From a virus (taxonomy: Duplodnaviria; Heunggongvirae; Uroviricota; Caudoviricetes), in IMG/VR virus record IMGVR_UViG_2909739949_000002, positions 146,529 through 168,414 of that record: a stretch of 21,886 bases of DNA; one strand, 5' to 3'. The notes beneath the pieces are model-generated. The model searched no databases and had not been told where the DNA came from. It saw nothing but the letters and a program-made list of their open reading frames with translations. The first letter of the stretch is position 1; each line of letters begins with the position of its first letter. Of the stretch, positions 1 through 19,751 are shown in pieces. A program made the position numbers and the translations under genes.

Positions 1-2711
1 AATTGGTTAGCATTAGAAGTAGACATCTCTACTGTATTGATACCTTCTAAATGAAGCTTCTGAATAGCATGTTGGCTATTATAAGAATCAAAGGAACATG
101 TCATTACTCTACGTGCTTTACATAATTCTATTAGCTTCTCTTCCATATCTAAGAAAGAGACTATTCTTTGGATACCTTTATTATTCTTATCTCTATCTAT
201 ATAAGGTTTCCATACTAGAAGAGTAGATACTATTATTCCCCAAGTATTATCTATAAGTATTGGATTACATATAGCAAGGGCGGCGCTATCTTTCTTTACA
301 CCATAATCTACATGAGCAAATGAGTTACCTATAGTAAGTGGTTCTACTCTAGATAACTTAACACCTACATAATATCTAGTCTCTCCTAATTCATTAGTAG
401 TATCTATTGGAACTTGTCTTCCATCTACTGAAGAGATACCTTTAAATGATTCTTTAACATTAGGTATTACCATAAAGGTTCCTTGTTTAAGAACCCTAAT
501 ACCTTCATATTCAGTAGCAGCACTAATAGGATCTTTAATATAATCTTCTGAAGACTTAATAGATTCTTCAGACATATTAGGATTTAAATTAACATCCCAA
601 GTACGTAGTCTTAAACCTAGAGTAGAAGAATCTCTAATAGCAACTTCTTCATATAATTTCTCTATATAATCTCCTGGTTCCCATGCAGAGGAAATAGCTA
701 TCTTATGCCCTTCTGCTCCAAATGTAATTGTATTATGAGAGATTATGGGATTACCTATGATGTTAGTATCTGGGATAGATAAAGCTATAGTTTCATCTTG
801 TTTAAAATAGTCTACAGATTTAACTTCATCCCATCTTATAGATGAATTAACTAAATATTTTATAAGATCATCTTTTATATCTATACCCTTTAATAAAGAT
901 AAAGACATACAATGATTATCTCTTATGCCTCCATAACCTCTACCTAATAAATCAGACCAAGATAAATCATTATTAATTTTATATTCTTTAAATCTTTTAG
1001 TTAATCCTAAAGGTAATAAAGATAATCCATTCTTAGATTTATCTTTTCTCTCTAATACAATCTCAAGTAAATCAAGCTGTCTCTGTTCTTTAGAAGGTAT
1101 TAATCCTATATTTGTATAAAAGTTAAGTATATTCTCTTTATCTCTAATTTCTAATACGTAACTAACTTTTCCATTAAAAGTATTAGTACTAAAGTATTTA
1201 TTATTCTTTAGTCTAACATTAGAGAAAACATTAAATCTTAATAGTTCTCTTTGTAGAGAGATTATTAAATTTTTATTAGTAAGTCCAATACCAATATTCT
1301 TGGAATTAGTTATATAACCATCAGTAGCAAATAATCCTTTTATAAATTCTGCTAATACGTCATTAGAAGAAGAAATTATATCAGGGGGAATAAACTTTGT
1401 ATAGGAAGTCTTTCCCATTAATCCTAATTCTCTAAGCCATTGTTTGAGAAGGTTAGGTTGAGAAGTACCTAATGATTTAACTGTATAATCATAGCTCTTA
1501 GACTTAGAGTAATTTACTAATTTATATCCCGGATATTCTTTATCTAAGATAGATTGAAAATCATCTATTATTTCTTTAGATACATTAGTAAATTTAATAT
1601 GGTTCTGAGATATTCCCCCGTCTCCTATTAAATATCCCAATAATCTAGCTTTCTCTTTAGAAATAGAATTATTTGTTCCTTGATAAGGAACAGTAGTTAA
1701 AATAGCTAACCTATCTCCTATTTGTATATCTTTAAGTTCTATCCATTGAGGTTGATTATTATCTTGTCTCCAAACTAAGAAAGGGTGATTATCTGTATAA
1801 TTACCTTCTAAACCCGTTCTAGTTTTAAGGGTATATATATCTTGTATTCCATTACTCTTTATAGAATAATTACTAGTAAAATAAGGAGTATATGTATTAG
1901 GGTCTAAAGTTAATATATCTATTCCTTCTCCATATCTTTCTAATAGCTCTTTATGGGTAATAGAGCATATAGAAGTATAAATAAGGTCATCTTTATACTG
2001 ACACCCACGGCCAATATTTTCCCAAAGGTGGTCAGCTTTACTATTACCAAACTCATCATATTCAAAACGAGCCACCTCATCTAGTATTAAACATTTAAGA
2101 GAATAACCTACTAGAGATTTAGAGTTAGTATGCTTTGCATATATACCAATATTCTTATGGCGGCATCTTATTTCGTCAGTTAATATTTCTATCTTGCCAG
2201 CTTTCTCTAGAGATTTGAAATAATCAGAACCTTCTGCATACCCTCTAATAGAAGCAAATAGAGTTTCTTTAACTTGCTCGGCTGATTGAGATATTACAAA
2301 TACAGCTATAGGAGAACCAGGTAAAAGTTTATAGTATTCTGCTGGATTATTTAACGTAATTAGCTTATAAAATTCTAATAATACTATGATAGATACCAAT
2401 ACCGTCTTCCCGCTTCTTCTGCCTGCTTCTAGCACTAGATTTCTATATTTTCTACCAGGAAGCCAAGTAGTTCTATCATTATCTCCCCAGCTATTTAATA
2501 TTAATATTTCATCTTCTTCTAAAGGTTCTCCATAGAAAGCCTTCAATATAGCTCTTTGAGTAGGATAGAGTTTTACTTTACTGTTGAATAGTATCTCTTC
2601 TGCAAACTCTACTATTGATATATCTGCGGAGCTTTCTAATGAAGATATGCCTTCACTAATAAGGTCATTAAATAATGAGTCTAGAGAAAAGTCTTTCTTA
2701 TAATTTGCCAT
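1..2711 (-). CDS. terL: Phage terminase large subunit, intein-containing, 3' end truncated by window edge
   Basis: Manual translation from ATG at 2711 (MANYKKDFSLDS...): LYPTQ motif, Walker A GRRSGKT (2403-2423), Walker B LILDE (2076-2090), coupling motif KIAISS, RNase H-like nuclease motifs HVDYGVKKDSAALA and FDSYNS. No stop found before the window edge, which would explain its absence from the ORF track. Confidence 0.92.
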   Translation of the reverse strand, partial: MANYKKDFSLDSLFNDLISEGISSLESSADISIVEFAEEILFNSKVKLYPTQRAILKAFYGEPLEEDEILILNSWGDNDRTTWLPGRKYRNLVLEAGRRSGKTVLVSIIVLLEFYKLITLNNPAEYYKLLPGSPIAVFVISQSAEQVKETLFASIRGYAEGSDYFKSLEKAGKIEILTDEIRCRHKNIGIYAKHTNSKSLVGYSLKCLILDEVARFEYDEFGNSKADHLWENIGRGCQYKDDLIYTSICSITHKELLERYGEGIDILTLDPNTYTPYFTSNYSIKSNGIQDIYTLKTRTGLEGNYTDNHPFLVWRQDNNQPQWIELKDIQIGDRLAILTTVPYQGTNNSISKEKARLLGYLIGDGGISQNHIKFTNVSKEIIDDFQSILDKEYPGYKLVNYSKSKSYDYTVKSLGTSQPNLLKQWLRELGLMGKTSYTKFIPPDIISSSNDVLAEFIKGLFATDGYITNSKNIGIGLTNKNLIISLQRELLRFNVFSNVRLKNNKYFSTNTFNGKVSYVLEIRDKENILNFYTNIGLIPSKEQRQLDLLEIVLERKDKSKNGLSLLPLGLTKRFKEYKINNDLSWSDLLGRGYGGIRDNHCMSLSLLKGIDIKDDLIKYLVNSSIRWDEVKSVDYFKQDETIALSIPDTNIIGNPIISHNTITFGAEGHKIAISSAWEPGDYIEKLYEEVAIRDSSTLGLRLRTWDVNLNPNMSEESIKSSEDYIKDPISAATEYEGIRVLKQGTFMVIPNVKESFKGISSVDGRQVPIDTTNELGETRYYVGVKLSRVEPLTIGNSFAHVDYGVKKDSAALAICNPILIDNTWGIIVSTLLVWKPYIDRDKNNKGIQRIVSFLDMEEKLIELCKARRVMTCSFDSYNSQHAIQKLHLEGINTVEMSTSNANQ
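732..2003 (-). mobile_element. Intein with LAGLIDADG homing endonuclease (424 aa) in terL
   Basis: In-frame insert GRG|CQYKDDLIYT ... GNPIISHN|TIT. Block A Cys1; block B TDNHPF; LAGLIDADG motifs LLGYLIGDGG (~1615-1645) and FIKGLFATDG (~1318-1347); block F start WDEVKSV; terminal His-Asn followed by Thr(+1). Confidence 0.93.
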
Positions 2712-2722
2712 TAGATAGTAGT

Positions 2723-2739
2723 TAGATAGCTGCTATCTA
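2723..2739. promoter_or_regulatory. 17-bp palindrome (TAGATAGC-T-GCTATCTA) in divergent intergenic region, operator-like
   Basis: Perfect 8-bp inverted repeat with 1-nt centre in the 68-bp gap between the divergent terL and 2780 starts. Confidence 0.4.
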
Positions 2740-2779
2740 TTTATATGAATTTAGTAGTTAGTAAAGGTAAGCGAAATAT

Positions 2780-3067
2780 ATGGCGAGATTGATAATTAAT
2801 AGTTTAGGTGCATTAGGTAATGCTCTTTGGTACTTCATAACTTGGAGAAGATACAATGATCCTACAGGGATGTCTACTAAACCAAAAGAAGAGCATGAGG
2901 CAGTAGAAGAATGGTATGAGTATATAGACAATAATCCTGAAGGATATGCATCTAATATATATCCAGATAATGTATATCCATATGAAGAGTTTGTAGATAG
3001 AACTTATGAAGAGAATTTAGAGTGGGAACAAGAAATGTTTAAATGGAAGGAGTTAGAAGATGAATAA
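2780..3067 (+). CDS. Hypothetical acidic protein (module gene A1; likely paralog of 6314..6580)
   Basis: ORF with AAAGGT upstream, overlapping the next gene; shares D-TG..T, (E/D)W.E and PDNV...T.EE motifs with 6314..6580. Confidence 0.7.
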   Translation: MARLIINSLGALGNALWYFITWRRYNDPTGMSTKPKEEHEAVEEWYEYIDNNPEGYASNIYPDNVYPYEEFVDRTYEENLEWEQEMFKWKELEDE

Positions 3068-3500
3068 ACCTAAGACATTAATCCAGTTATATAGAGAACA
3101 TTACAAGGAAGTAGCAAATTTTCTTAAAGAGGAAGAGATACTAAACTTAGTTATAGCTGGCATAGTTATGGATAAAGAAAAGTTTCTCGAAGTTCTATTT
3201 GAAGTAGATAGAGAAGGAAAACCTGAAAGAGTTAAAGTAACTTACAAGGCTGCAATCAATAATCAACCTCTTGATTGTACTCAATGGATTAAAAGAAGTA
3301 AATTTAAAGACCTTACTGGAAACATATTCGGTATCTATTATAGAGATACTTATAATGATTCTCTTTTAGAGGGAGATAAAGTAAGTATTGAAATAAGTAA
3401 TAGTGAAGGTGAACTATGTTCTCTAGAAGCAGAAATAATAAGAGTATTCTTAAATGATTCAGAGAATGGGGACAGTTATATTATTGTCAAAGAAATTTAA
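3060..3500 (+). CDS. Hypothetical protein (module gene B1; likely paralog of 6564..6971)
   Basis: GGAG RBS and overlap with the upstream gene; F.EVL.E.D and FK..GN motifs shared with 6564..6971. Confidence 0.75.
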   Translation: MNKPKTLIQLYREHYKEVANFLKEEEILNLVIAGIVMDKEKFLEVLFEVDREGKPERVKVTYKAAINNQPLDCTQWIKRSKFKDLTGNIFGIYYRDTYNDSLLEGDKVSIEISNSEGELCSLEAEIIRVFLNDSENGDSYIIVKEI

Positions 3501-3502
3501 GA

Positions 3503-3539
3503 ATAGGCGGCCTAACTAGCCGCCTATTTAGTTAGGAGA
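3503..3539 (+). repeat. Conserved hairpin + RBS repeat, copy 1
   Basis: ATAGGCGGCCTAACTAGCCGCCTATTTAGTTAGGAGA; 10-bp stem, 7-nt loop; 35/37 identical to 6270..6306. Confidence 0.95.
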
Positions 3540-3545
3540 AATAAA

Positions 3546-3699
3546 ATGAATTACGAAATATACTTAGATCTAATTAAAGAATTTACTCCTATACGGCATT
3601 AAATTAGCAGAGCATTTATATAATGACTGCACCTTGTATCTAGATCGTAAAAAGAAAAAATTAACTGATTACTTAAGCGTAGAAAGGAGTAGATATTAA
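3546..3699 (+). pseudogene. Internally deleted/frameshifted gene, probable remnant of a free-standing LAGLIDADG endonuclease
   Basis: AGGAGA RBS plus ATG 3546 (MNYEIYLDLIKEF...) stops after 18 aa. A different frame reads KLAEHLYNDCTLYLDRKKKKL...RY* and ends with TAA overlapping the 3699 ATG (TAATG coupling). LYxDxxxYLDRK resembles the C-terminal motif of phage LAGLIDADG endonucleases. Confidence 0.5.
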
Positions 3700-4052
3700 T
3701 GGCTAAACCTTGGGATCATGCAATAGAATCCTCTCGCAAATTTGGAGGCAAACCAGAGGATTATTTTGAGATTCATCAAATGATAGATAGCTCTAAATCA
3801 GCTCATGCAACTATGAAACATAGATGTGTATTTCATAATTCATTTGGCATATATCTTATTGAAAGAATATTTGGGATTAACATAACTAATAGCAATGGAA
3901 AGTTAGTTTCTGTAAGAGAAATAGCAGAGCTTCACGTTTTAAGTGACTTAGGAAAAATTCCTTCTCTAGATGATTGGATGAAAGAAATGGAACTTAAGCC
4001 TTGGATGGGTCAACCTACTAAAGTTGTTTACGAATATAAGTTGGGAGAGTAA
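3699..4052 (+). CDS. DUF6915-like His-rich protein
   Basis: Pattern P..HA.SS.RKFGG..EDY..IH...D.SK....HR...H...GI...E.IFG..ITNS.GK.V.VR.IAE.HV..DLG.IPS matches my recollection of DUF6915; AAGGAG RBS. Confidence 0.75.
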   Translation: MAKPWDHAIESSRKFGGKPEDYFEIHQMIDSSKSAHATMKHRCVFHNSFGIYLIERIFGINITNSNGKLVSVREIAELHVLSDLGKIPSLDDWMKEMELKPWMGQPTKVVYEYKLGE

Positions 4053-4165
4053 TAGAAGATCTAGGAAAGATACCCACTTTAAGTGATTGGTTAAATGAAA
4101 TGAAACAAAGTAGTTGGCATGGTGCCCCAACTAAAATTACTTTTGAGTATAAATTAGGAGAATAG
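4049..4165 (+). pseudogene. Orphan diverged second copy of the 3' end of the DUF6915-like gene
   Basis: Reads VIEDLGKIPTLSDWLNEMKQSSWHGAPTKITFEYKLGE*, colinear without gaps with 3936..4052 (23/38 aa identical). No start codon; contains the AGGAGA RBS for 4167. Confidence 0.9.
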
Positions 4166-4166
4166 A

Positions 4167-4724
4167 ATGCAAAGAGTATTGAGACATGAGTTAGACAACA
4201 CAATAGACAAGTCTTTAAATGAAATTAAGTTAGCTCAAGAAGCAATAGGTAAATCAGTTCTTGAGTTAGTAGTAAAACAAGTTAGAGATGTAATAGAGTA
4301 TTTGCCTGACTCAATAGTAGGTATTACATGGACACAATATACCCCATTCTTTAATGATGGAGATCCATGCACTTTTAGAGTTAATGATCCTCAATGGATT
4401 ACTAAAGCTGAAGAGAATATAAATAATATCTTCAATGAATGGGTACTAGAAACTATAGATAAATATGGAGAAGATGTTATCCAAGTAGAAGGAATAGTAG
4501 AGCAATATATACTTCTTGATACCTGGAGCTGTTTCTATCAATACTTAAATAACGAAAGGATGTTCTTCTCTCCAGATAAAGAACAGTTATTTAATATTCT
4601 CCAAGATATAGAAGCTGCTTTATCTAGAATAGAAAGCTATCTAGAAGATGAGATGGGCGGGCATTCGGAAATTTACATATTCAAAGACAAGATAGTAGTA
4701 GAGGAATATCTTAATCATGATTGA
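4167..4724 (+). CDS. Hypothetical protein, WTQYTP(F/Y)FNDG family, paralog 1
   Basis: GITWTQYTPFFNDGDPCTF motif; C-terminal GGHSEIYI...EEYLNHD. Confidence 0.8.
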   Translation: MQRVLRHELDNTIDKSLNEIKLAQEAIGKSVLELVVKQVRDVIEYLPDSIVGITWTQYTPFFNDGDPCTFRVNDPQWITKAEENINNIFNEWVLETIDKYGEDVIQVEGIVEQYILLDTWSCFYQYLNNERMFFSPDKEQLFNILQDIEAALSRIESYLEDEMGGHSEIYIFKDKIVVEEYLNHD

Positions 4725-5190
4725 AGGATTTAATTCAATTGAAGAGTACCATGAAGAACTCTGTGGAGTTATAGATAAGAATTGGAGTGAGCTTTTAGCA
4801 AAAGTTAGGACAGAAGTAGCTAATTTACTAAAGCTTTATTTCCTCGAAGTTAATGATGAAACAAGTATAGAAGGTATCACTTGGACTCAATATACTCCTT
4901 ACTTTAACGACGGAGAAGAATGTGTATTCTCAATAGGAGATGTTTATTATCTATTGAGAAATGAATATGGTGGCTATGAGAATATAGGAATAGATGATTT
5001 TAATCCTAGGTTTAATCCTAATCCTATTACTGATGATGAACATAAGGATGCTGAATTAGAGAGCCGCCTTAAGTTATTACAAGAACTTCTCCATAAGAAT
5101 GAAAGTTATTTCCAGATAGTATTTGGAGATCATGCAAGAGTATCAATAACAGCAGATAACTTGAGAGTAGAGAGATACGACCATGAGTAA
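4717..5190 (+). CDS. Hypothetical protein, WTQYTP(F/Y)FNDG family, paralog 2
   Basis: GITWTQYTPYFNDGEECVF motif; C-terminal FGDHARVSI...ERYDHE; overlaps both neighbours. Confidence 0.8.
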   Translation: MIEGFNSIEEYHEELCGVIDKNWSELLAKVRTEVANLLKLYFLEVNDETSIEGITWTQYTPYFNDGEECVFSIGDVYYLLRNEYGGYENIGIDDFNPRFNPNPITDDEHKDAELESRLKLLQELLHKNESYFQIVFGDHARVSITADNLRVERYDHE

Positions 5191-6265
5191 ATTTCTAGTA
5201 GAGATAGTAGAGATAGATCAAGTAGTTAAACATCCTGATGCTGATTCATTAGAGATTATCTCTATAAAGAATATGGGATATCAAGTAATCAGTAAGATGG
5301 GTAATTACAAAAGTGGCGACTTAGCTATTTACTTTCCTATTGATTCAGTAATACCTGACGACTTAGTTGAAGTCTTTGGTATTAGAGCCTACTATAATGG
5401 GAAAATTAGGGCGGCTAAGTTAAGAGGTATATTCTCAGAAGGATTACTAATTCCTATTGATATAATCAAAGCTATATTATCTAGCAAAGGAAGATTAGTA
5501 TCTACTCCTGATGAAAAAGAGTATTACTTAAATAGCGATAATACTGCTTATGAACTTAGCATAGGAACAGATCTATCTCATTCTTTAGGAATTACTAAGT
5601 ATGAATATCCCTTACCAACTCAAATGGGTGGGATAGCAGAGATGCCTGTAGGTCAATATAAATTCCCTAGTCCTGAGAACTATAAGAGATATAGTCATCT
5701 ATTAGAGAAAGGTGAGTATATATTCCTAACCGAAAAAGTTCATGGTAGCCACCTTCTTTATGTACTAGACGAAGAAGGAATACCACATATAGGCAGTCAC
5801 AATTACTTCTGGAAGATAGATGCAGAAGAGAATACTAACAATATATATGTGAGAGCTTATAAGGAGAATCCTAATCTAGCTAAAGTACCTAAAGGATACT
5901 GTCTCTATGGAGAGGTATATGGTAGTGGGGTACAAGATTTAAAGTACGGACTAAAGAATGGACAGATTAGGATTGCTGTCTTTGCGATCGCATATAAAAG
6001 AAAGATACTAAATATGAATGAGGTATCTGATTTATGTAGACAATGGGAACTACCAATGGTACCAGTTCTATATGAGGGGCCTTATTCAGATGAGATAGTT
6101 CAGTCTTTTAATAATGCTGATAGTTATCTATGTCCAGGGCAGATACAGGAAGGAGTAGTAATAGTTCCTAAGGAAGAGAGAAGTAGTTTAGAGATAGGTA
6201 GAGTGTGTCTGAAGTCTATCTCTGATAGATATTCTCTAAGAAAAGAAGGCACTGAACTACATTAA
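5183..6265 (+). CDS. ATP-dependent RNA ligase, DRB0094/Rnl5 family
   Basis: N-terminal OB-like domain (HPDADSLE, YFPIDS, KLRGIFSEGL); nucleotidyltransferase motifs TEKVHGS (I), LYGEVYG (III), QEGVVI (IV), LKSIS (V). Confidence 0.9.
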   Translation: MSKFLVEIVEIDQVVKHPDADSLEIISIKNMGYQVISKMGNYKSGDLAIYFPIDSVIPDDLVEVFGIRAYYNGKIRAAKLRGIFSEGLLIPIDIIKAILSSKGRLVSTPDEKEYYLNSDNTAYELSIGTDLSHSLGITKYEYPLPTQMGGIAEMPVGQYKFPSPENYKRYSHLLEKGEYIFLTEKVHGSHLLYVLDEEGIPHIGSHNYFWKIDAEENTNNIYVRAYKENPNLAKVPKGYCLYGEVYGSGVQDLKYGLKNGQIRIAVFAIAYKRKILNMNEVSDLCRQWELPMVPVLYEGPYSDEIVQSFNNADSYLCPGQIQEGVVIVPKEERSSLEIGRVCLKSISDRYSLRKEGTELH

Positions 6266-6269
6266 TTGG

Positions 6270-6306
6270 ATAGGCGGCTTAACTAGCCGCCTAATTAGTT
6301 AGGAGA
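6270..6306 (+). repeat. Conserved hairpin + RBS repeat, copy 2
   Basis: ATAGGCGGCTTAACTAGCCGCCTAATTAGTTAGGAGA, just after the ligase stop and before ATG 6314. Confidence 0.95.
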
Positions 6307-6313
6307 TAGATAA

Positions 6314-6580: not shown

Positions 6581-6971
6581 AGAACAAGCTAAGTTTCTCT
6601 TTAATTGTTTGCTAGATAAATTAAATGAAGAAGGTGGCGGCTACTTAGAAACTCTATATTTAGCATTAGAGAATCTAGATTTATTTGGAGAAGTATTAGC
6701 AGAATATGATTCTACTTTTAATAAAGGATTAGATATTAATAATACAGAAGATATATCTGTCTTTCTCTTAGAAGAAGAATTTAAAGCTAATTCATTTAAA
6801 CTACAAGGTAATTATCTTTATCTATCAGGAGTTAATAAATTAATAAGTAATTACGAACCTATAACGATTACTATTACTTCTAGAAGAGAGACTCATAAGG
6901 TAGTAGGAAAGATAGAGAAGTGTAAGCCTGTAAAAGGTGGATATAACTATAGATTTATATTAGATAGATAA
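6564..6971 (+). CDS. Hypothetical protein (module gene B2)
   Basis: Overlaps A2; motif similarity to 3060..3500. Confidence 0.75.
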   Translation: MKKENREQAKFLFNCLLDKLNEEGGGYLETLYLALENLDLFGEVLAEYDSTFNKGLDINNTEDISVFLLEEEFKANSFKLQGNYLYLSGVNKLISNYEPITITITSRRETHKVVGKIEKCKPVKGGYNYRFILDR

Positions 6972-6975
6972 AAGT

Positions 6976-7006
6976 ATAGGCGGCTTAACTAGCCGCCTAA
7001 TTAATT
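6976..7006 (+). repeat. Conserved hairpin repeat, copy 3 (no AGGAGA tail); possible terminator or processing site
   Basis: ATAGGCGGCTTAACTAGCCGCCTAATTAATT, 4 nt after the B2 stop. Confidence 0.93.
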
Positions 7007-7032
7007 TAAAGACAATAGTTTAATTAACTAAT

Positions 7033-10012: not shown

Positions 10013-13000
10013 TTAGGTTTTCTCCAGAATTTACCATTAGGTAATCTAATCTCTTCTATAGAATCTAAAGGTATTTCTCTATCATCTAATCTATCATCAA
10101 AAGGTCTAAAAGTAAGAGTAGGATCATGGATATTAACGTTAATAGCCTTAGCAATAATAGTTTCAGTATTAGTAGTTATATTAAATTGACCTCTAGGTAT
10201 GAAAATACCAGCGTAACCAGATTCTAATATAAAGTTAGTTACCGGATGAAGATTATTTATACTATTAATAGTTTGGTTAGTTTGTGCTTGTCCAGTAAAA
10301 GAACTATTATTAAAAGCTGCTCTACCTTCAGAGGGAAAAGGAATTCCACTGAACCCAGCAAATCTAGCATGAACTTCTGCTATTCTTCTTTTGTTCTCTA
10401 TTAACTGCAATTCTAATTTAACTGTTTTACTAAACTCTTCTGCAAATCCAGTTCTTATTACTACTTGATCTACAGTATTAGGTTTAGAAACTCTAATAGC
10501 AGATATAGCTTTTTGTAATGGAGTAGGCCCAGGAGAACTCTTAGGAGATGGAGGTATATATGTTGTATTAGGATTCTTTTTCTTTTCTTCTTCCTCTTTC
10601 TTATCATAAAGGATAACTGATCTAACATATTGAAAAGATCCATATCCTACACCTAATGAAAGAGAAGCTGCTCCTGCTAATTGAAGTAAAGGATTACTTA
10701 ATAACCTAATTGGATTTAATTGAACCCTATTAGAAACTAATCCTCCTACTACTTTTTCACTAGTACTATTAACTGAGTTAGTTAAATCATAAGTTTTATT
10801 AGGAACTACTATAGAAGGAGGTGGAGCTGGAGGTGGAATAGGAGGTGGGAGAGGTGGCTCAACTTTGTTAACTGTAGTATTAGTAGTCTCTATGGGAGTG
10901 GGGTCAGGATTAACATCAGGAGCAGCTTCTTCAATAGGAGAGTTCCATATATCTAATTCTGCTGGCTGATCAATAGCAGGTGTAGGTTTAATACCATTTG
11001 CCTCCTTAGCCGCCTCATAGATATTATCTAAGTCATCAGAAATATTTCCTAACTCTACTAGTTCTGGATCTTGAGCAACTACTGGCTGCTGTATAACAAT
11101 AGGTTCCTCTATTACAGGTGTAACTTCAGGTGGAGTAAAATCCTCAAATGTTGTAGTAGTAGGTGTTTCTTGAACTGCTACTGAAGCTTCCGTCTCATTA
11201 ATTACTGGAGTAGTCTCCTGTATAGCATCTGATTCTTGTTTATACTCAGCTAATACTTCTTCTGAATTAACTTTAGGTGGTTCATCGATTACTTTAGGTA
11301 CTGCATCTTCATTTACTACAGGGATAGGAGGTTCTTCTACAGGAACAGAAGTATCAATTGGATTAGGATTAGGCGCTTCGGGATTTATTTCCCAGGGTGG
11401 TTTAGGAGCAGGAGGCAATAACTCAGAAGGTTTAGGTACTTCTTCTGGTTGAATTATAAATTCATCTATAGCTTTCTGGAACTCATCTGTCTGTATAACA
11501 GGATCTATATCTAATGAAGAGTTAGTAGGAGTAAGAGTATATAGACCATCGCCATCAATCTGTCCAGTCTCTAATAATAATCTTCTTTCTGCAAGAACAT
11601 TATCTAATCCATCTGCTACTTGTTTACTAACTATCTTCTCAACTACGTCTCCTTTATTATTTGTATAAGTTACTCTATATTTACCTGTTGCTTCATATTT
11701 TATAGGACTCCCTATAGCATTTCTCGCTATAACCTTTCTGTCTGGAACTATCTTTGTTGGATTAATGGCATCATTTATTATAGATATATCTTCATTAATT
11801 GCTAGTATTTCTTCTTTAACTTTATTATTAATAGGAACATACTCTTTAACTTCTTTACCCTTTTTCTTAACTACCCTAACTTCTCTAAAGTTAGCTTCAG
11901 ATGGTTGATAAGGTGTACCAGCTTTTTCTTGTATAGTCTTTCTATAATTAAGATCTTGTAATTTAAACTGCTCTAATCTTTCTTCCCTGGCTTGTTTCTT
12001 AGCTAATGCTTCATCTAAAGATTGTTCTAGATCAGAAGTTCTAGAATCTACTTCATTCTCTATAGTTCTTCTAGAAGCATATCTAGTAGTAGTTCCTTGT
12101 TCTACTATTTCCTGAAATTCCGCATTAGTAATAGACTGCTTAAATTCTTTACCAGCAGAGTTTTTATATGTAATTAGTACATTATCATCAGAACTAGTAG
12201 AAAAGCCTACTATATCTGAGTCAGATGGAATGAAATCTAACTCTCCTGATTGAAGTACTTTATTTATCCTTACAGACTCTTCTGCACTTAGATCTACTGC
12301 TTTTAAATTACCAGAGGTATCTTTATAAGAATATCTATAAGTAGGTGTAGTTGATGCTGTTGATGGTACAACAGCAACATCGGGTACTACATCTGGAGGA
12401 ATAGTGGCTACAATTTCCTTTACTGGATCTGGCGGAGGTGTAGATGGAGGTTTAGGAGCACTTGAACTCGAAGTTGTATTCTTAGCTACAAAACTATCTA
12501 TAAAATCTACTTCTGCTTTATTAGAAGTAGATCCTCCAGTTTTATAATTAGGATAGCTAGTATTAGTATTAGTTCTTTTATTAAATACATTTATACCATT
12601 AACACTATCTTCATATTGAATCTGAACTATATCTCCTTTCTTACCGGATATAACACCAGTTGAATCTTTCTGTAATTCAAACTCATAAGTTCTAGCAGGA
12701 GTTCCTGAAGCTTTTCCTACTCCTTCTGGAATATCTGATTTAAGAGTTGCACTAGGAGGTGTAGGGTTAGTTGGTTTAGCTGTACCTGGTTTATATGGAG
12801 CAGGAGGACTCTGTGAATAAAGACTATTCTTAAAACTACCAACAACATCTGTAGATTCACTATTCTGATAGAAGAAGTTATCAAGAAAGTCTTTCTCTTG
12901 TGAATCAGGTTTTATAGTATTGATAGAACCAGTTTTATTATCAGGGGTTTGGTAAGTAATCTTTCTCTTAACAGAACTTCCTGAAATAGAACCACCTGAA

Positions 13001-15741
13001 TTATTACCAGATACCTCATATGTGAATTTAGTACCAGCAGGAAACTTATCTATCCTTCCAACTGAGGAAGCCATATCTTCTTGTAGAGTACCCTCGAAAG
13101 TATATTTGAAATTACCACCAGTATCAACTTCAGTAATAGCCCTACTACTAGTTCCTTTAGGAATAGTACTTGTACTACTACTAGTAGAACTAGTGGTAGA
13201 TGTTTTAGGAGGAGATGAAGGTGTAGAAGTAGAGGGAGATTTAACTTCTGGGTCTGGAGTAGTAGTTCTTTCTACTGGAGTTGGAGGGGGTGGTGTTCTA
13301 ATAGCTACTACCTTTTCTATAATCTCTTTAATAGATTCATCATCAGGAGGTAGAACTATTTCTACTGATTCAGGAGTAGCAGGTGCATAATCTTCAAATT
13401 TAATGACAGCTTTACCTTCACTGTTTCTAGAAACCTTAATGTTATTATTAGCTGGAATAGTATACTCAACTCCATCTACTCCTTTAATACTTATATCTTT
13501 ATCAAAACTAACATCAGTAGATACATCTGCTTCTATATCTGCAAACTTAGCTGCCTGACTAACTCCTGATCCAGATACTTTAACAGAAGTATATTTACTA
13601 AGAGCTTGTCCAAAAGTTATAGGAGCTGGTCTATTTTTATATAATCTTCCTAAAGTAACTTTATTAACTATACCTGTAGTAAGGGGACTAAAGAAAGATT
13701 CATCAAAAGCTTTAACAGCTCCACCTAAAGCATTTAATTCGGCTCCTGGAGCTTTACCTACAGTACCAACAGCTTTTAATACTCCTGATATAGGGTCTGC
13801 TACAAAGCCCCCAACTTTTAACACACCACTAGCTAACTTAGCAGAAGCACCAGTCCCTTGAGCAGCAGTCGTTAGAGCTTTACTTATACCTAAAGCTCTA
13901 GCAGGATACTTAGCTAAACTAGCAGCAGGAAGAACAGTTAATAGTAACTCTAGGTCGCTAGCATTATTACCTAGATCATTTCCTTGACCTTGATCTATAA
14001 GGCGTTTAATTCTAGTCCCAGTGTCAAAACAAATAAGAGCAGCTAAACCAGCAGTTAAACCTAAAGTGGCTCCACTAGCTCCTATTGTAGTAGCGCAACC
14101 TATTGCTGATCCAACAAGTACTACATGATTTTTAATAGCAGTGGCCGCATCACCATACTTTCTTCCAGATAGATTCTTAAATTCCTTTTCACTAATCCTA
14201 TCTATATAAGTAGAACCATCAGAAGTACCCCTAACAAAATACTCTGTTATAGTTTGTCCAGTATTAGGATCTACATAAGTAATTTTATTAACTAATACTT
14301 CTCTACCATTAGCATCAACAGCAGCAAACTCTTCTACCTTACCTAAAGCTTTACCGTTACCATCTTTTCCTTCAGCTAAAGCTATAATCTCACCTAATCT
14401 TTTCATTAAAGCTACATCAGCTTTAATCCTATTCTTTTTATCTAATGCCGCATTCTCTTCTTTCTGTAACTGAATAGCAGCAGTTAGATCATTATTTAGA
14501 TTAATAGGAATCTTACTAACTAATCCCATATCAGATACTTCTAATTGAAGTGTATACCAAGTTCTATCAGAACGTTGTTGATATACTTCCATAGATTTGA
14601 CTATGGCTTTGAATTTAGGATTACCATTAGCAGCTCTTATTACTGAATCTTCTTTACTAGGACTAGTTAATGTTCTATATTTACTTGAGTTGATTTCTAC
14701 TTCCATTTCTACACCTTGTAGAATTGCAAAGTTATAAAACTCTTGTAAATCTCTATAAGAATCTACTAAAGTAGCTAGACTATTTAATTCAGCTAAAGAA
14801 GATGCAGTATTATCAAATATACTTCTATTACCAACCTGTTCCCAAGGAGCTTTATCTGGATCTGCATATGGTTTAGCTCCATCTCCACCAGCAAAAGCGC
14901 CGACCATAGTAACTAATAAAGTATCCATACCTAGATTCTGAAATACAGGTTGGAAGCCTACAGTTTTAAACTTAGCTAGATTAGGAATTATTTTAAAAGA
15001 TAATCCAGGCATTACATTAGGAACATCTCTACTACCTTGCATAGGTAAGGTAGAGTTAATAGCTGGTAGTAAAGTTAAGTAAAACTCTTTATCAGTTATT
15101 TGAGTATTATTAACTGGGCCCGCACTTGGGTTATTAAAATTAGGATCATCAGCTTTCTTTAGAGTTCTAAATCTAACACCCCAAGTATCTCTAGGTTTTT
15201 CTGGTGTATCTTTTACTTCTTTAGGAAGTTCAGATTTATCTGGTTTATTAGGATTGCCGCTCTGACCTAAATCAATAGAAGGAGTTCTCTTAGTATCTAC
15301 ATTAAGTAAAGGTTTAGTTGAAGCCTTATTTAACTTTAACCATCTACTAGTAATAGACTGCAACTCTGATATAGCTTTAGGTAATACAGCTATATCTTTC
15401 TGAAATAGTGAAGAATTAAAATCCTGATTACCTTTAACTCTTGCATATACTAAGTTGAAATTATTATAGGTATTTAGAATATTATTTATATCAAATAAAT
15501 TATCTGATACCTCGCTTTCTCCTAGAGTATTAGCTAAAGGGAAGTATGATAGGCTATTTAACAAAGCTGAGTAAACAGAGTCTAAAGCTGTAGGAAGATT
15601 CCCATATCTTTGATAATCTAAAGAAGTGTTATCTATTGAACCTTCATATAGTTTTCTTATTCTTCCTATTATTCCTTCTTTATTAGTGTAAGCATCCCAT
15701 TTCTTAGCTTCATTAATTAGTGATTCTCTAGTATCAGTCAT
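10009..15741 (-). CDS. Giant (1910 aa) modular protein, probable virion tail-associated/ejected protein
   Basis: N-terminal region with PVFQNLGMDTLLVTMVGAF (reminiscent of GpU/tail-tube-initiator folds); Gly/Ala hydrophobic helices (~14030-14130); Pro/Ser/Thr linkers separating repeated small domains; acidic Pro-rich stalk; hydrophobic segment near the C-terminus (~10630-10700). Confidence 0.6.
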   Translation of the reverse strand: MTDTRESLINEAKKWDAYTNKEGIIGRIRKLYEGSIDNTSLDYQRYGNLPTALDSVYSALLNSLSYFPLANTLGESEVSDNLFDINNILNTYNNFNLVYARVKGNQDFNSSLFQKDIAVLPKAISELQSITSRWLKLNKASTKPLLNVDTKRTPSIDLGQSGNPNKPDKSELPKEVKDTPEKPRDTWGVRFRTLKKADDPNFNNPSAGPVNNTQITDKEFYLTLLPAINSTLPMQGSRDVPNVMPGLSFKIIPNLAKFKTVGFQPVFQNLGMDTLLVTMVGAFAGGDGAKPYADPDKAPWEQVGNRSIFDNTASSLAELNSLATLVDSYRDLQEFYNFAILQGVEMEVEINSSKYRTLTSPSKEDSVIRAANGNPKFKAIVKSMEVYQQRSDRTWYTLQLEVSDMGLVSKIPINLNNDLTAAIQLQKEENAALDKKNRIKADVALMKRLGEIIALAEGKDGNGKALGKVEEFAAVDANGREVLVNKITYVDPNTGQTITEYFVRGTSDGSTYIDRISEKEFKNLSGRKYGDAATAIKNHVVLVGSAIGCATTIGASGATLGLTAGLAALICFDTGTRIKRLIDQGQGNDLGNNASDLELLLTVLPAASLAKYPARALGISKALTTAAQGTGASAKLASGVLKVGGFVADPISGVLKAVGTVGKAPGAELNALGGAVKAFDESFFSPLTTGIVNKVTLGRLYKNRPAPITFGQALSKYTSVKVSGSGVSQAAKFADIEADVSTDVSFDKDISIKGVDGVEYTIPANNNIKVSRNSEGKAVIKFEDYAPATPESVEIVLPPDDESIKEIIEKVVAIRTPPPPTPVERTTTPDPEVKSPSTSTPSSPPKTSTTSSTSSSTSTIPKGTSSRAITEVDTGGNFKYTFEGTLQEDMASSVGRIDKFPAGTKFTYEVSGNNSGGSISGSSVKRKITYQTPDNKTGSINTIKPDSQEKDFLDNFFYQNSESTDVVGSFKNSLYSQSPPAPYKPGTAKPTNPTPPSATLKSDIPEGVGKASGTPARTYEFELQKDSTGVISGKKGDIVQIQYEDSVNGINVFNKRTNTNTSYPNYKTGGSTSNKAEVDFIDSFVAKNTTSSSSAPKPPSTPPPDPVKEIVATIPPDVVPDVAVVPSTASTTPTYRYSYKDTSGNLKAVDLSAEESVRINKVLQSGELDFIPSDSDIVGFSTSSDDNVLITYKNSAGKEFKQSITNAEFQEIVEQGTTTRYASRRTIENEVDSRTSDLEQSLDEALAKKQAREERLEQFKLQDLNYRKTIQEKAGTPYQPSEANFREVRVVKKKGKEVKEYVPINNKVKEEILAINEDISIINDAINPTKIVPDRKVIARNAIGSPIKYEATGKYRVTYTNNKGDVVEKIVSKQVADGLDNVLAERRLLLETGQIDGDGLYTLTPTNSSLDIDPVIQTDEFQKAIDEFIIQPEEVPKPSELLPPAPKPPWEINPEAPNPNPIDTSVPVEEPPIPVVNEDAVPKVIDEPPKVNSEEVLAEYKQESDAIQETTPVINETEASVAVQETPTTTTFEDFTPPEVTPVIEEPIVIQQPVVAQDPELVELGNISDDLDNIYEAAKEANGIKPTPAIDQPAELDIWNSPIEEAAPDVNPDPTPIETTNTTVNKVEPPLPPPIPPPAPPPSIVVPNKTYDLTNSVNSTSEKVVGGLVSNRVQLNPIRLLSNPLLQLAGAASLSLGVGYGSFQYVRSVILYDKKEEEEKKKNPNTTYIPPSPKSSPGPTPLQKAISAIRVSKPNTVDQVVIRTGFAEEFSKTVKLELQLIENKRRIAEVHARFAGFSGIPFPSEGRAAFNNSSFTGQAQTNQTINSINNLHPVTNFILESGYAGIFIPRGQFNITTNTETIIAKAINVNIHDPTLTFRPFDDRLDDREIPLDSIEEIRLPNGKFWRKPK

Positions 15742-15742
15742 A

Positions 15743-16186
15743 TTAAACTCCTCTATTGATAAGTGCTATTACTATCTCTCTAAGAGAAGTAACATTATAT
15801 TGATTAAAAGAAGCAAATCCTAATTGAAGACTTGCAGTAGATATATCTTGAGGATCTAATAGAGAATAAATTCTATAGCTGCCAGTATCATGAAAGGATT
15901 TATAAGGAGATAGATTATAGACTATTGATGCAGAAGGTAATTGAAGAGTATCAAAGTAATCTAATCTTAATCTAGAAACCATTTCTAATTCCTCATTGGT
16001 AAATAAGGAAGAATTAATATTCTGTAAAAGAATAGCTAGACCTATTAGTTTAGAGCTTTCTACATTTAAGCTTCTAAGTCTAAGCTCTTTTAATTTAGTG
16101 TTTACTCTAGAGCCCCTTAATTCTAAAGGGTGCCCATAATCTTCAGTAGGTAATTTAGATAGGAATGATTGTAATAGTTCATCCAT
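15743..16186 (-). CDS. Hypothetical protein, first gene of minus-strand operon
   Basis: 147-aa ORF ending 1 nt before the giant gene start; its 3' end carries the GAGGAG RBS for that gene. Confidence 0.7.
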   Translation of the reverse strand: MDELLQSFLSKLPTEDYGHPLELRGSRVNTKLKELRLRSLNVESSKLIGLAILLQNINSSLFTNEELEMVSRLRLDYFDTLQLPSASIVYNLSPYKSFHDTGSYRIYSLLDPQDISTASLQLGFASFNQYNVTSLREIVIALINRGV

Positions 16187-16257
16187 AAGAGATGAGGCAA
16201 TTTATTAATTAATTAATTTAAAGAGATATCTAATGCAGATATGTAGGAGAAATATAA

Positions 16258-17346
16258 ATGGAATTAGAAGTTCAGAAATATTTAAGAGATAAAGGTTCTT
16301 TAGAATCTTTAGAGAAAGAGTTAGCTATTAGTTCTAAGAGACATAAATTATTTCCTAATCTAGTCCTATTGAAATATTCTCAAATTGATTCTCCAAGAAC
16401 TCATGAAGTAGTAAAACAATGTAGAGGTATTATTTTAGATGAAGAAGATAATTGGAAAGTAATTAGCTATCCTTATAAACGCTTTTATAATGCAGAAGAA
16501 TATGGAGCTGATGAAATAGATTGGAGTAATGCTACTTGCTATGAGAAACTAGACGGCTCTCTTTGTACAATTGCTAAATATAAGAATAGATGGTTTGTTT
16601 CTACTAGTGGATCTCCAGATGCTAGTGGTTCAGTAGGAGATTTTAACTTTACCTTTGAGGATTTATTCTGGAAGACTTTTGATGAACTATACGACATATC
16701 TTGTTTATTAAATTTAAATGAGCAGGTATGTTTTATGTTTGAGTTATTAACTCCATATAATCAAGTCATAGTTAGACATGATACTAGTAGATTAATTTTA
16801 CATGGAGCGCGTAGATTAGATACTCTGGAAGAATTAGATCCCTTAAAGATAGCTAAAGAAATAGGCTGGGAACCTATAAAGACATATCCATTTACTACAT
16901 GGGCGGATATTCAAGCCGCCATAGTAGATATAGATGGTAGTAAATCAGAAGGATATGTAGTAGTAGATAAAGAATTCAGAAGAGTAAAAGTAAAGAGTCC
17001 TCAATATGTAGCCCTCTCTCATCTTAAAGAGGGTATTACTTCTAGAAGAATATTAGAGATAGTTAGAACTAATGAGGGGTCTGAGTTTCTAGCTTATTTC
17101 CCCGCCTTCAAAGATATCTATATAGATTATCTAGATAAATACAAACAGCTAGTAGAAGATATAGATATCGTCTATCAGAAAGTTAAAGATATAAAGGGCA
17201 GAAAGGAATTAGCTATGGAGATAAAACATTTACCTTATAGTGGAATAATATTTGCTCTAGTAGATGGACATACATCTTCTATTAGAGAAGGCTTAAGAAC
17301 CACTCATATAGATAAATTAGCCTCTTGGTTAGGAGTTAAAGAATGA
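16258..17346 (+). CDS. T4 Rnl1-like ATP-dependent RNA ligase
   Basis: QCRGIILD, PYKRFYN, motif I EKLDGS, motif III FMFEL, motif IV EGYVV, motif V RVKVKS; AGGAGA RBS. Confidence 0.9.
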   Translation: MELEVQKYLRDKGSLESLEKELAISSKRHKLFPNLVLLKYSQIDSPRTHEVVKQCRGIILDEEDNWKVISYPYKRFYNAEEYGADEIDWSNATCYEKLDGSLCTIAKYKNRWFVSTSGSPDASGSVGDFNFTFEDLFWKTFDELYDISCLLNLNEQVCFMFELLTPYNQVIVRHDTSRLILHGARRLDTLEELDPLKIAKEIGWEPIKTYPFTTWADIQAAIVDIDGSKSEGYVVVDKEFRRVKVKSPQYVALSHLKEGITSRRILEIVRTNEGSEFLAYFPAFKDIYIDYLDKYKQLVEDIDIVYQKVKDIKGRKELAMEIKHLPYSGIIFALVDGHTSSIREGLRTTHIDKLASWLGVKE

Positions 17347-17774
17347 GTAGAGAAAGTAAGAGAATTATCCAAGAGAGAGAAGAATTAACTAGAACACAGA
17401 ATAGAAGAATGTTCTTGAATAGCTTACCTAGAAAGCTACTAGAGTTAATGTTGGAAGTGGAAAGTATAGGAGGCTCTTATAAAGTTACTTCTATAGATTT
17501 CCATGAGCTAACTAAATCAAGTGAGATAGAAATTGAGTTTAAGTGGTATGACTTATCTAATACTACTCAGAAGTACTACTTAAATACTGCTAGTGAGGAA
17601 TGGGAGTTACAAAATGTAGTAGATAAGGTTCAGTCCTACAAGAGAGAGTTGGAAAGGGATAATTATCTAAAAGAGATATCTAAAGAAGCTAGACAGAAAG
17701 CAAAGGAGGCGCTAACTGAAGATCAATTAGAAGCCTTAGTTAGATATGTAAAAGAAACAGGAGTAATTAATTAG
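17343..17774 (+). CDS. Hypothetical protein, small paralog family member 1
   Basis: KLLELMLEVESIG helix, IEIEFKW strand, LNTASEE, then coiled coil ending ALTEDQLEAL. Confidence 0.75.
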   Translation: MSRESKRIIQEREELTRTQNRRMFLNSLPRKLLELMLEVESIGGSYKVTSIDFHELTKSSEIEIEFKWYDLSNTTQKYYLNTASEEWELQNVVDKVQSYKRELERDNYLKEISKEARQKAKEALTEDQLEALVRYVKETGVIN

Positions 17775-17775
17775 T

Positions 17776-18195
17776 ATGGCATTAGAAAGATATCAAGACT
17801 TAGATCTAAGATTGGCGGCGATGTTAGATCTAATAGCTATGGCTCAGAAAGAAGATGTAAAAGCTATTGTTATGAATAGCAAAGAAGAGAATCCATATAA
17901 GAAAGAAGATAAAGACATTATATGTGTGAGATTTGAACATGAAGGAAAGAATTTAGGTATAATTAGTAGCCATACTACACTAGCTTATCCAGTAGATATT
18001 AAGAGGCAATTAGAAAGGATAAGAGATGAAAGGATAGAGAAGGAATTAAAATATGAACAATTACTTAGCGCCTTAGGAACTATTAGAGATAATCTTTCTC
18101 CTGAAGAGTTAAAGGCTCTGAATGAAATTATTCCAATACAACAAACAATCTATAACTATTTAAGAAAGGAGTCTAAAGATGAAGGAGAATATTAG
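17776..18195 (+). CDS. Hypothetical protein, small paralog family member 2
   Basis: AMLDLIAMAQKEDV, CVRFEH, IISS, coiled coil, LSPEELKAL. Confidence 0.75.
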   Translation: MALERYQDLDLRLAAMLDLIAMAQKEDVKAIVMNSKEENPYKKEDKDIICVRFEHEGKNLGIISSHTTLAYPVDIKRQLERIRDERIEKELKYEQLLSALGTIRDNLSPEELKALNEIIPIQQTIYNYLRKESKDEGEY

Positions 18196-18547
18196 TTTAT
18201 TAAGTAAGAGTGATTATGAATCTAATAGAGCAACTGCTTTATTAGACTTATTATCTATGGCTCAGAGTAACGGAGTCTTTAATTGTGTTAGTAAGACAAT
18301 AGATGGAGAACATCATATAGCCTTCTGCTTAATGACAATAAAGCCAGCAGTAGATTGTATTATCAGTTCTAGCGACACTTACGAGAAATATGTAGAAGTA
18401 TACAATTCTCTAATGATACCTTTTATTAAGAGAAAGCTAGAAGTGATTAAGAAGATTACTGATATTGCTACTCAAGAGGAATTAGAACTAGTGGGTATCG
18501 ATACTAATAAATGGGAACTTAGTTTAAAGGAGTATGTAGTTGAGTAG
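18179..18547 (+). CDS. Hypothetical protein, small paralog family member 3
   Basis: ALLDLLSMAQSNGV, HIAFCL, IISSSDTYEKY, ATQEELELVGI. Confidence 0.75.
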   Translation: MKENISLLSKSDYESNRATALLDLLSMAQSNGVFNCVSKTIDGEHHIAFCLMTIKPAVDCIISSSDTYEKYVEVYNSLMIPFIKRKLEVIKKITDIATQEELELVGIDTNKWELSLKEYVVE

Positions 18548-19751
18548 ACTGATTATTATTCAAGGTCTACCTGCTAGTGGTAAGAGTACAAAGGCGGCGG
18601 AGTTAGCCGCCTCTCTTATTAATAGTGTGGTAGTAGAGATGGATGAAATTAGAAAAGAGATGGGAATTCTTAATCTCCCTTTTAATAAAGAGAAAGAGAC
18701 CCAGGTTAAACAGATAAGAGATTCTAGAATTAGAAAGTATCTAAAAGATGGAAAGATAGTTATATCAAGTGACACTAATCTGAAACAAGATACTACTAAG
18801 AGACTAGAAGAGATAGCCGCCCAAAGTAGATCAACTGTTGAATATATATCTCTAACTGATGTTTCTTTAGAAGAATGTATTAGAAGAGATAGTGCTAGGG
18901 ATAGATCAGTAGGTGAAGCAGTTATTAGAAGATTCTATAACCAATACCTAAGACCAGATGATCCTATCTATAAATTCGGGAAGTATGGAAACCATCCTAG
19001 TGGATTAGATAATGTAATAGTTATAGGCGATATTCATGGTCAACATGAAAAGTTAACTAATCTATTACTTAGAGTAGGTATCTACATAGACTCTTTTGAG
19101 TGGGTTAATAGTAATAATTATTACTGTGTATTTCTAGGAGATTTAAATGATCCTAGATTAAGTGATCCTAAACTTAATCTGCCACCTTACTCTTCTTCTC
19201 TTAGATGTATCTATATAGTTAAGAAGCTAGTAGATTTAGGATGGGCTACTCTAATACAGAGTAATCACCAGAAGAACCTAATACAAGCTATTAGAGGAGA
19301 GAGGACTAGATATTCCTATGGATTGGAATATACTATGGAAGAGATGAGGGAAGAAGATCTGGTAGATTATGTTCCTTATAGAGGAATAGCAGATTGGTTA
19401 TCTAATCAACCTTACTTCTATAAATTCTATTGTGGTAGAAAGTTATTTATCTGTACTCATGCAAAGTATACAGTGGGAATGAAGCAATATATTCCTACAG
19501 GTAATGAGATACAGAATGCTTTATATGGGCCTGTAGATAAGAACATCAAATATGTTCCAGGGGGTAAAGATCCTAGAATACATTGGTGGTTAGATGAGAC
19601 TAATAGAATTGAGGGAGCCGTCCAGATATCAGGTCATTATCATACTTACTATTCTACTGATTGGGTGAAGATTATAGATAGTGAATGCGGTAATGACGGC
19701 GGCTTATTAACTGGTTATTTACCAGTAACTAATCAGACTATTCAGGTATAA
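18540..19751 (+). CDS. Polynucleotide kinase fused to calcineurin-like metallophosphoesterase (Pnkp-like RNA end-healing enzyme)
   Basis: P-loop GLPASGKST, DEIR, DTNL and CIRRDSAR of the T4-PNK/AAA_33 type; phosphoesterase motifs GDIHG, GDLND, SNHQ, THA, GHYH; TTG start with AAGGAG RBS. Confidence 0.88.
   Translation: MSRLIIIQGLPASGKSTKAAELAASLINSVVVEMDEIRKEMGILNLPFNKEKETQVKQIRDSRIRKYLKDGKIVISSDTNLKQDTTKRLEEIAAQSRSTVEYISLTDVSLEECIRRDSARDRSVGEAVIRRFYNQYLRPDDPIYKFGKYGNHPSGLDNVIVIGDIHGQHEKLTNLLLRVGIYIDSFEWVNSNNYYCVFLGDLNDPRLSDPKLNLPPYSSSLRCIYIVKKLVDLGWATLIQSNHQKNLIQAIRGERTRYSYGLEYTMEEMREEDLVDYVPYRGIADWLSNQPYFYKFYCGRKLFICTHAKYTVGMKQYIPTGNEIQNALYGPVDKNIKYVPGGKDPRIHWWLDETNRIEGAVQISGHYHTYYSTDWVKIIDSECGNDGGLLTGYLPVTNQTIQV

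Follow-up and report, generated by a model that had tools for sequence, protein, structure and literature searches.

Over-representation of the hexamer GGCGGC throughout a putative cyanobacterial prophage genome and in the hairpins behind its genes

The analysed DNA and its origin

The DNA stretch under study (the window; 21,886 nucleotides) forms the final 21.9 kb of the 168,414-bp virus record IMGVR_UViG_2909739949_000002 (Caudoviricetes; record positions 146,529 to 168,414). It encodes, among others, an intein-bearing large terminase, an RNA-ligase-like protein, a 1910-aa structural-type protein, an Rnl1-type RNA ligase, a kinase-phosphoesterase (PNK-like protein) and a large serine recombinase, and it carries many copies of the hexamer GGCGGC (GCCGCC on the opposite strand), which is the subject of this report. 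The word is strongly enriched across the whole record independently of what the genes encode, and it occurs in two classes, as solitary copies and as the two arms of short inverted pairs with a fixed spacer. Gene assignments are based on simple longest-open reading frame (ORF) calls (247 ORFs, together 89 % of the record), so that a few copies scored as intergenic may reside in small genes.

The record is classed as a provirus by IMG/VR and rated complete by CheckV. Its intein-bearing terminase shares 59 % identity with those of the Microcystis phages Ma-LMM01 and MaMV-DC and 49 % with that of the Microcoleus phage My-WqHQDG. Judging from sequence similarity, the best clue to the phage host is an IS605-type TnpB (record 62962–64188, minus strand), the best segment of which is 90–95 % identical to copies from Calothrix, Chlorogloeopsis, Nostoc and Nodularia. 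A protein identical to the PNK-like one is also recorded on a 359,493-bp contig. Together with the provirus classification and the serine recombinase at the extreme end of the record (window 20540–21886, minus strand), this parent contig suggests an integrated 168-kb prophage. Based on terminase kinship, TnpB identity, parent contig and serine recombinase, the phage is a temperate member of the Ma-LMM01 type, most likely with a Nostocales cyanobacterium as host.

Enrichment of GGCGGC

A first-pass annotation of the window had listed 18 exact copies of GGCGGC/GCCGCC where fewer than one was to be expected. All 18 were found at exactly the positions given, and dinucleotide-preserving shuffles of the window (n = 100) yielded 0.18 copies on average and two at most. 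Twelve of the copies are located inside ORFs, as had been noted, and the other six represent the arms of three intergenic inverted pairs. Near-matches of the type GGCGG, likewise listed, are present at window positions 4656, 8700, 12431, 17102 and 20414, and two further ones were detected at 16902 and 18596. The genome is indeed AT-rich and CpG-poor (GC content 33.3 %, CpG observed/expected 0.29).

The excess is genome-wide rather than a property of the window. The complete record harbours 124 copies (67 on the plus and 57 on the minus strand; 0.74 per kb), as compared to 7.2 copies predicted by base composition and 2.4 by a first-order model, corresponding to an approximately 17- to 50-fold excess. 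When the record is divided into 6-kb bins, GGCGGC is present in all except three of them. Among hexamers of the form NNCGNN, it ranks first with 17-fold its expectation (runner-up 2.2-fold) and is also the commonest CpG-containing hexamer by raw count. Likewise, it leads the 36 hexamers composed of G and C only, with the runner-up (39 copies) overlapping GGCGGC itself. The pentamer GCGGC is preceded by G in 69 % of cases and GGCGG is followed by C in 73 %, while only 9 of the 124 copies of the hexamer have C as the next base. Accordingly, the enriched unit is the asymmetric hexamer and not a GCSGC pentamer or a longer palindrome.

One-letter variants of GGCGGC are not depleted, and the transition neighbours GGTGGC, GGCGGT and AGCGGC occur at or above expectation. 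The CpG observed/expected ratio is 1.18 in GCGG/CCGC contexts versus 0.14–0.30 in most other contexts; apart from GCGG/CCGC and, to a lesser degree, GCGC, all contexts show a 3- to 7-fold CpG depletion.

As a separate feature of the composition, several GC-rich or CpG-containing palindromes (GGCGCC, GCCGGC, GCGCGC, CCGCGG, CCCGGG, CTCGAG, CACGTG and ACCGGT) have zero copies in the record, and GGGCCC has 22. The missing palindromes look like the outcome of heavy restriction-site avoidance.

Independence from protein coding

The contribution of coding was determined with synonymous-codon shuffles (n = 300) within each gene, preserving protein sequence and per-gene codon usage. The genes contain 70 copies of the word, as opposed to 8.4 ± 2.8 in the shuffled versions (maximum 17). 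Read on the coding strand, GGCGGC occurs 44 times versus 4.8 expected (9.2-fold) and GCCGCC 26 times versus 3.7 (7.1-fold), and each of the six classes of orientation and reading frame is enriched 5- to 25-fold. The codons used to write it are rare ones, since GGC, GCC, GCG and CCG account for only 3–10 % of their families. Gly-Gly pairs are encoded as GGC-GGC 17 times (1.6 expected) and Ala-Ala pairs as GCC-GCC 14 times (1.7 expected). A general tendency to reuse identical codons was rejected as cause, because GGA-GGA, GGT-GGT and GCT-GCT do not exceed their expectation. Neither of the outcomes that the first-pass annotation had named as refuting its proposal, confinement to the window and loss of the enrichment in synonymous shuffles, was thus observed. 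The proposal is upheld as far as a DNA-level cause is concerned, since the enrichment depends neither on frame or strand nor on codon usage and extends over the entire genome. The equivalence of the two strands argues that the word matters in duplex DNA rather than in mRNA.

Relatives, host-type genomes and other phages

Among the related phages, My-WqHQDG (48 % GC) contains 26 copies, which is below the prediction from its composition, and no hairpins. In Ma-LMM01, 103 copies of GGCGGC compare to 79 of the reversed control word, and in MaMV-DC 111 to 86; neither displays an excess like that of the present phage. Nostocales loci totalling 1.47 Mb (GC content 41.6 %, CpG observed/expected 0.83) harbour 447 copies versus 239–324 expected and no hairpins. 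In five whole Nostocales genomes, GGCGGC is about as frequent as the control word (0.19–0.38 per kb), with neither excess nor strand skew. Raw counts in other large phages, taken whatever their GC content, amount to 2 (Staphylococcus), 1 (Enterococcus), 1 (Psychrobacillus) and 23 (Bacillus; control word 20), two of these four phages belonging to the Herelleviridae. As none of the four has the excess, it is not general to large phage genomes, and within this sampling it is confined to the lineage of the present phage.

Nineteen motif sites could be aligned to the relatives. The dipeptide is retained in a relative at 3 of the 19 and the word itself at none, the nearest approach being GCC GCT in Ma-LMM01. 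Since the relatives mostly have other amino acids at the matching positions, the copies were gained in the present lineage, often via an amino-acid change at variable positions. Close relatives were not found by megablast against phages, by searching with a structural protein in IMG/VR and metagenomes, or among 401 genomes of the host's order.

Inverted pairs

The motif had initially been regarded as a single class. Its enrichment stands, but two classes are present, and the copies forming hairpin arms require an RNA-level explanation of their own. About one third of all copies are arms of fixed-spacing hairpins: the record contains 21 perfect inverted pairs of the form GGCGGC-N7-GCCGCC (spacer of 6 nt in one of them) and about 6 further pairs with one mismatch, two of which are located in coding sequence, giving approximately 27 pairs in total. 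Fifteen of the 21 perfect pairs start 6–14 nt past the stop codon of a gene on the same strand, and most end 10–40 nt ahead of the next start codon, with the ribosome-binding site lying in between. Flanking A-T pairs extend the stems to 9–11 bp, and five folded examples reach –18 to –22 kcal/mol (z about –3 to –4.5). The loops are related (NTAACTA type) and occur in both orientations within co-directional gene blocks. Downstream tails are T-rich (about 6 T in 10 nt) and lack a classical U-run; several hairpins were rated terminator-like on both strands in a terminator scan.

Three intergenic pairs are present in the window. The first (3506..3524; –18 kcal/mol, z –4.3) is located 6 nt past the stop of a 146-aa ORF, is followed by a GGAG resembling a ribosome-binding site and was rated terminator-like. 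The second (6273..6291; –21.9 kcal/mol, z –4.5) lies 8 nt past the stop of the RNA-ligase-like gene (5183–6265) and 23 nt before the next start, and the third (6979..6997; –18.8 kcal/mol, z –4.3) 8 nt past a stop and 36 nt before the next start. A fourth pair (18593..18611; –21.7 kcal/mol, z –3.3) resides within the coding sequence of the PNK-like gene (18540–19751; Pfam AAA_33 and Metallophos), where it encodes K-A-A-E-L-A-A just after the P-loop; it was first scored as intergenic in the ORF-based count, because this gene starts with TTG. The Rnl1-type RNA ligase gene (16258–17346) contains a one-mismatch pair, GGCGGA-N7-GCCGCC (16902..16920; –18.4 kcal/mol, z –2.95). Apart from these inverted pairs, no strong stem-loops were seen in the window.

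On the scale of the record, the hairpins occupy boundaries among cassettes of small genes, and none was found within the long minus-strand structural blocks. No Rfam family matched at gathering score anywhere in the window. A scan of IMG/VR with the hairpin pattern returned single chance matches only in other contigs, and among the 401 genomes of the host's order none approached the density of the phage, the loops among the matches listed being GC-rich. Due to their stereotyped location just past stop codons, a role in RNA is the most economical reading; as judged from position and fold, the hairpins most likely act as partial terminators or 3′-end stabilisers between cistrons.

A putative phage tRNA gene (record 27600–27680) contains one GCCGCC as an arm of its anticodon stem (anticodon loop CTCATAA); this stem constitutes a seventh one-mismatch pair.

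Solitary copies

A partner arm is lacking in about 75 copies. In the window, two of them are located in the terminase gene: the copy at 279..284 (plus strand) is read on the coding strand as GCC GCC (Ala-Ala; GCC GCT in Ma-LMM01, Gly-Ala in My-WqHQDG), while that at 2159..2164 (plus) is out of frame (TGC CGC CAT) and involves the rare Arg codon CGC, the relatives having Cys-Gln-Ala or Ser-Pro-Ser instead. A further out-of-frame copy is present in a 157-aa ORF (5063..5068, minus; AGC CGC CTT). The RNA-ligase-like gene reads AGG GCG GCT (5410..5415, plus; Arg-Ala-Ala, as compared to Arg-Thr-Ile in My-WqHQDG), a 135-aa ORF GGC GGC (6636..6641, plus; Gly-Gly), the 1910-aa structural-type gene GAG GCG GCT on its coding strand (11009..11014, minus) and a 139-aa ORF TTG GCG GCG (17814..17819, plus; Leu-Ala-Ala). 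The PNK-like gene has two, GCC GCC (18816..18821, minus; Ala-Ala) and, 48 nt before the stop, GGC GGC (19698..19703, plus; Gly-Gly), the latter corresponding to GGG CCC (Gly-Pro) in My-WqHQDG.

Upon merging of hairpin arms, 102 loci result. The gaps between them average 1,632 bp (coefficient of variation 1.1), and even the largest, 9.8 kb, is not unusual for randomly placed loci. Orientation domains are absent, since a runs test yielded 41 runs versus 41.4 expected (P = 0.5). Within genes, solitary copies lean towards the 3′ end: 36 of 68 are located in the last 200 nt, a number attained in none of the simulations (21.9 ± 3.8 expected). No corresponding lean towards gene starts and no shared flanking sequence were observed.

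Several further properties were considered and rejected. The flanks of the 74 true solitary copies look symmetric (T/A at –7/–6, A at –1, T at +6, T/A at +11/+12), as if reflecting a footprint of about 20 bp; however, much the same biases surround the controls (one-off neighbours, common dicodon words and other all-GC words). Pairing of solitary copies with a downstream hairpin as an anti-terminator was discarded, because in the 19 genes that have a hairpin behind them the last 200 nt are free of solitary copies, and solitary copies are about as far from hairpins as random positions are. Hidden partner arms were likewise not the explanation, as just about 6 solitary copies have a partner with one mismatch.

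Interpretation as a recognition word

The first-pass annotation had suggested a genome-wide mark, listing a HIP1- or Chi-like word, methylation, protein binding, and a packaging or injection signal as candidate functions. A genome-wide feature at the DNA level is borne out by the present data. We favour, with a probability of roughly 0.4, that GGCGGC represents a selected recognition word for a sequence-specific protein that binds double-stranded DNA and is encoded by either the phage or its host. According to this proposal, GGCGGC would be a lineage-specific iterated word of a Ma-LMM01-type prophage, read as duplex DNA, and selection for the protein's recognition site would account for the solitary copies as well as for the use of a single word in every hairpin stem. 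Solitary copies would have been written in all frames with rare codons, often by amino-acid changes at poorly conserved positions. The hairpin stems would be built from the same favoured word, their probable RNA role being that of a partial terminator or a hairpin protecting the 3′ end. The reader protein might, for instance, silence or mark the prophage across its whole genome. While the enrichment, its independence from coding, its restriction to the lineage and the existence of two classes are demonstrated, both that a protein reads GGCGGC and what role it plays are inferred by us.

Several points weigh against this proposal. No candidate reader was recognized, and most early genes lack a Pfam family. 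With no more than 6 bp, the site is short for a protein that binds DNA specifically, and the flank biases shared with control words provide no extended footprint. Spacing of the loci is Poisson-like and gives no hint that even coverage is selected for. Solitary copies and hairpins show no association, so that one function for both classes is an assumption, and no close relative was found in which individual sites could be compared.

Two of the functions listed initially find little support. Methylation by the phage itself is not backed by its gene content, as neither a C5 or N4 cytosine methyltransferase nor DpdA was found (no match to PF00145, PF01555 or PF01702 among the phage proteins); adenine methyltransferases are irrelevant, since GGCGGC has no A. 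A single packaging or injection signal fits poorly with 102 randomly spaced loci.

One of the closest parallels is provided by the stoperators of cluster A mycobacteriophages, the sites of the L5 gp71 repressor, which are 13–14 bp long, number about 25–35 copies and have one orientation relative to transcription. Shared properties are tens of copies of one short asymmetric site distributed across a temperate genome, many of them at gene ends or in short intergenic gaps. GGCGGC differs in having only 6 bp, 102 loci and both orientations about equally enriched (9.2- and 7.1-fold); moreover, no repressor was found.

One may further speculate that GGCGGC exemplifies a wider phenomenon, i.e., that it is an asymmetric all-GC word of some AT-rich phages with unrelated hosts, each of which would place it in its own DNA at about one copy per 1–2 kb for use by a phage-encoded reader or writer, as a phage counterpart of HIP, Chi and DUS. 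This extension is possible but doubtful at present; if such recurrence were borne out, it would point to a new function shared among phages. Our search found no relevant literature on the GGCGGC word in phages.

Over-represented words such as Chi, DUS/USS, KOPS and HIP1 each led to DNA-handling machinery. Here, a 50-fold enriched word is available in a small tractable genome for which relatives, host-type genomes and other large phages serve as clean controls, and the word has a second, positional use in gene-end hairpins next to an enrichment of HIP1 in the same phage.

Alternative explanations

An alternative that we regard as unlikely is a repair-driven ratchet of the kind that has been put forward for cyanobacterial HIP1 and the alternate HIPs. 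A host cytosine methyltransferase would recognize GGCGGC or its GCSGC core, and methyl-directed or very-short-patch-type repair would convert near-cognate sequences in the prophage into the word, which would thus be without a function of its own. The setting is appropriate, given the cyanobacterial host lineage (TnpB 90–95 % identical to Nostocales copies) and the provirus class, and the location of copies at unconstrained positions and gene 3′ ends with random spacing is what a drive limited by purifying selection should produce. In addition, HIP1 itself is enriched in the phage: the octamer GCGATCGC has 7 copies in the record versus about 0.4 calculated from base composition (record 18673, 44647, 51406, 68533, 79619, 88885 and 152512, the last corresponding to window 5984). 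All 7 CGATCG of the phage lie within GCGATCGC; the seven sites are AT-rich, six of them are located in phage genes, and they do not cluster in a host-derived island. Word-generating forces of the host type hence do act on the phage DNA.

To our knowledge, HIP1 is still without an explanation after three decades. GGCGGC resembles HIP1 and the alternate HIPs as a short GC-rich word of cyanobacterial context that is enriched many-fold to about one copy per kb, is genic in all frames and lacks an agreed function. The alternate HIPs GGCGCC, rCCGGy and GCsGC are all palindromic, each has a cognate methyltransferase, and the all-GC ones, including GCsGC, attain 1–2 per kb (Elhai 2015, PMC4390886). 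The existence of such all-GC words speaks for the ratchet; GGCGGC contains the GCsGC core. GGCGGC, however, is not palindromic, and with only 9 of 124 copies followed by C, it is not a GGCSGCC either; furthermore, it is found in a phage instead of a chromosome and is randomly spaced. Sampled Nostocales DNA shows no excess, and the phage has no cytosine methyltransferase, the true host genome being outside the sample. The one-step neighbours of the word, including the transition neighbours, should moreover have been consumed, but they are not depleted. Conversion of the VSR type in particular was rejected on this ground, as it predicts depleted transition neighbours.

Distinctly improbable in our view is a signal for a processive enzyme, i.e., a Chi-like site taming a helicase-nuclease that acts on the ends of phage DNA, or else a site at which the phage primase preferentially starts, enriched to a working density of about one per 1–2 kb. 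With respect to the Chi-like signal proposed earlier, shortness and enrichment of the word stand, while a RecBCD-type system is weakened by missing strand polarity and by the absence of RecC from the five Nostocales genomes. Firmicute Chi sites (AGCGG and GAAGCGG) are similarly short, G-rich and asymmetric, over-representation is common to GGCGGC and the Chi sites of RecBCD/AddAB, and Chi can protect linear DNA. The density of 0.74 per kb in the phage versus 0.19–0.38 per kb in host-type genomes would also be compatible, as would the phage-encoded RecA, SbcD-type exonuclease, helicases and DnaG-type primase. Chi, however, is strand-polar and enriched in the host, whereas GGCGGC is distributed 67:57 between the strands without regional polarity (runs test P = 0.5), has neither excess nor skew in host-type genomes, and is spaced no more regularly than random. 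The absence of RecC relates to the RecC profile only (PF04257); recBCD is mostly confined to marine picocyanobacteria (PMC5101192). A primase start site meets the additional difficulty of its length. Known primases recognise trinucleotides.

Very improbable is the possibility that only the hairpins are functional, as terminators or as cassette-boundary elements similar to REP or PeSL, with the solitary copies representing decayed, nascent or recombination-derived half-elements. The hairpins are the sole strong stem-loops in the window, share a fixed spacer and related NTAACTA loops and are located at gene boundaries among small-gene cassettes, and the approximately 6 one-mismatch pairs demonstrate that decay occurs. 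PeSL cassettes of T4-type phages, reportedly described by Arbiol and colleagues in 2010, are comparable with respect to the hairpin class, in that repeated GC-rich stem-loops border small phage gene cassettes; they differ in that the GGCGGC hairpins have no conserved promoter, follow closely behind the upstream stop codon and possess an invariant instead of a co-varying stem. Neither PeSL nor REP elements explain the solitary genic copies. True solitary copies have no remnant of a partner arm at +13 to +18, most of them are located in ORFs in every frame, including long structural genes that lack hairpins, and they are no nearer to hairpins than random positions. Descent of about 75 half-sites from about 27 elements inside conserved proteins is implausible.

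Finally, an origin of the excess as a by-product of composition, codon usage or amino-acid content without any DNA-level cause is almost certainly wrong, even though CpG is generally spared in GCGG/CCGC contexts (1.18 versus 0.14–0.30), because dinucleotide shuffles, the first-order Markov model and synonymous shuffles all miss the observed counts by 8- to 50-fold, other identical-codon pairs are not enriched, and three other large phages hold merely 1–2 copies each.

Further features of the phage genome

The large terminase gene (window 3–2711, minus strand, continuing in the record to 149239) is split by an intein with a LAGLIDADG homing-endonuclease domain. A family A DNA polymerase (record 109668–112010) also bears an intein and looks separated from its exonuclease part. 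The set of RNA-repair genes is unusually full, comprising a TROVE (Ro60-like) protein (record 74960–76567, plus strand), two RNA ligases and the kinase-metallophosphoesterase.

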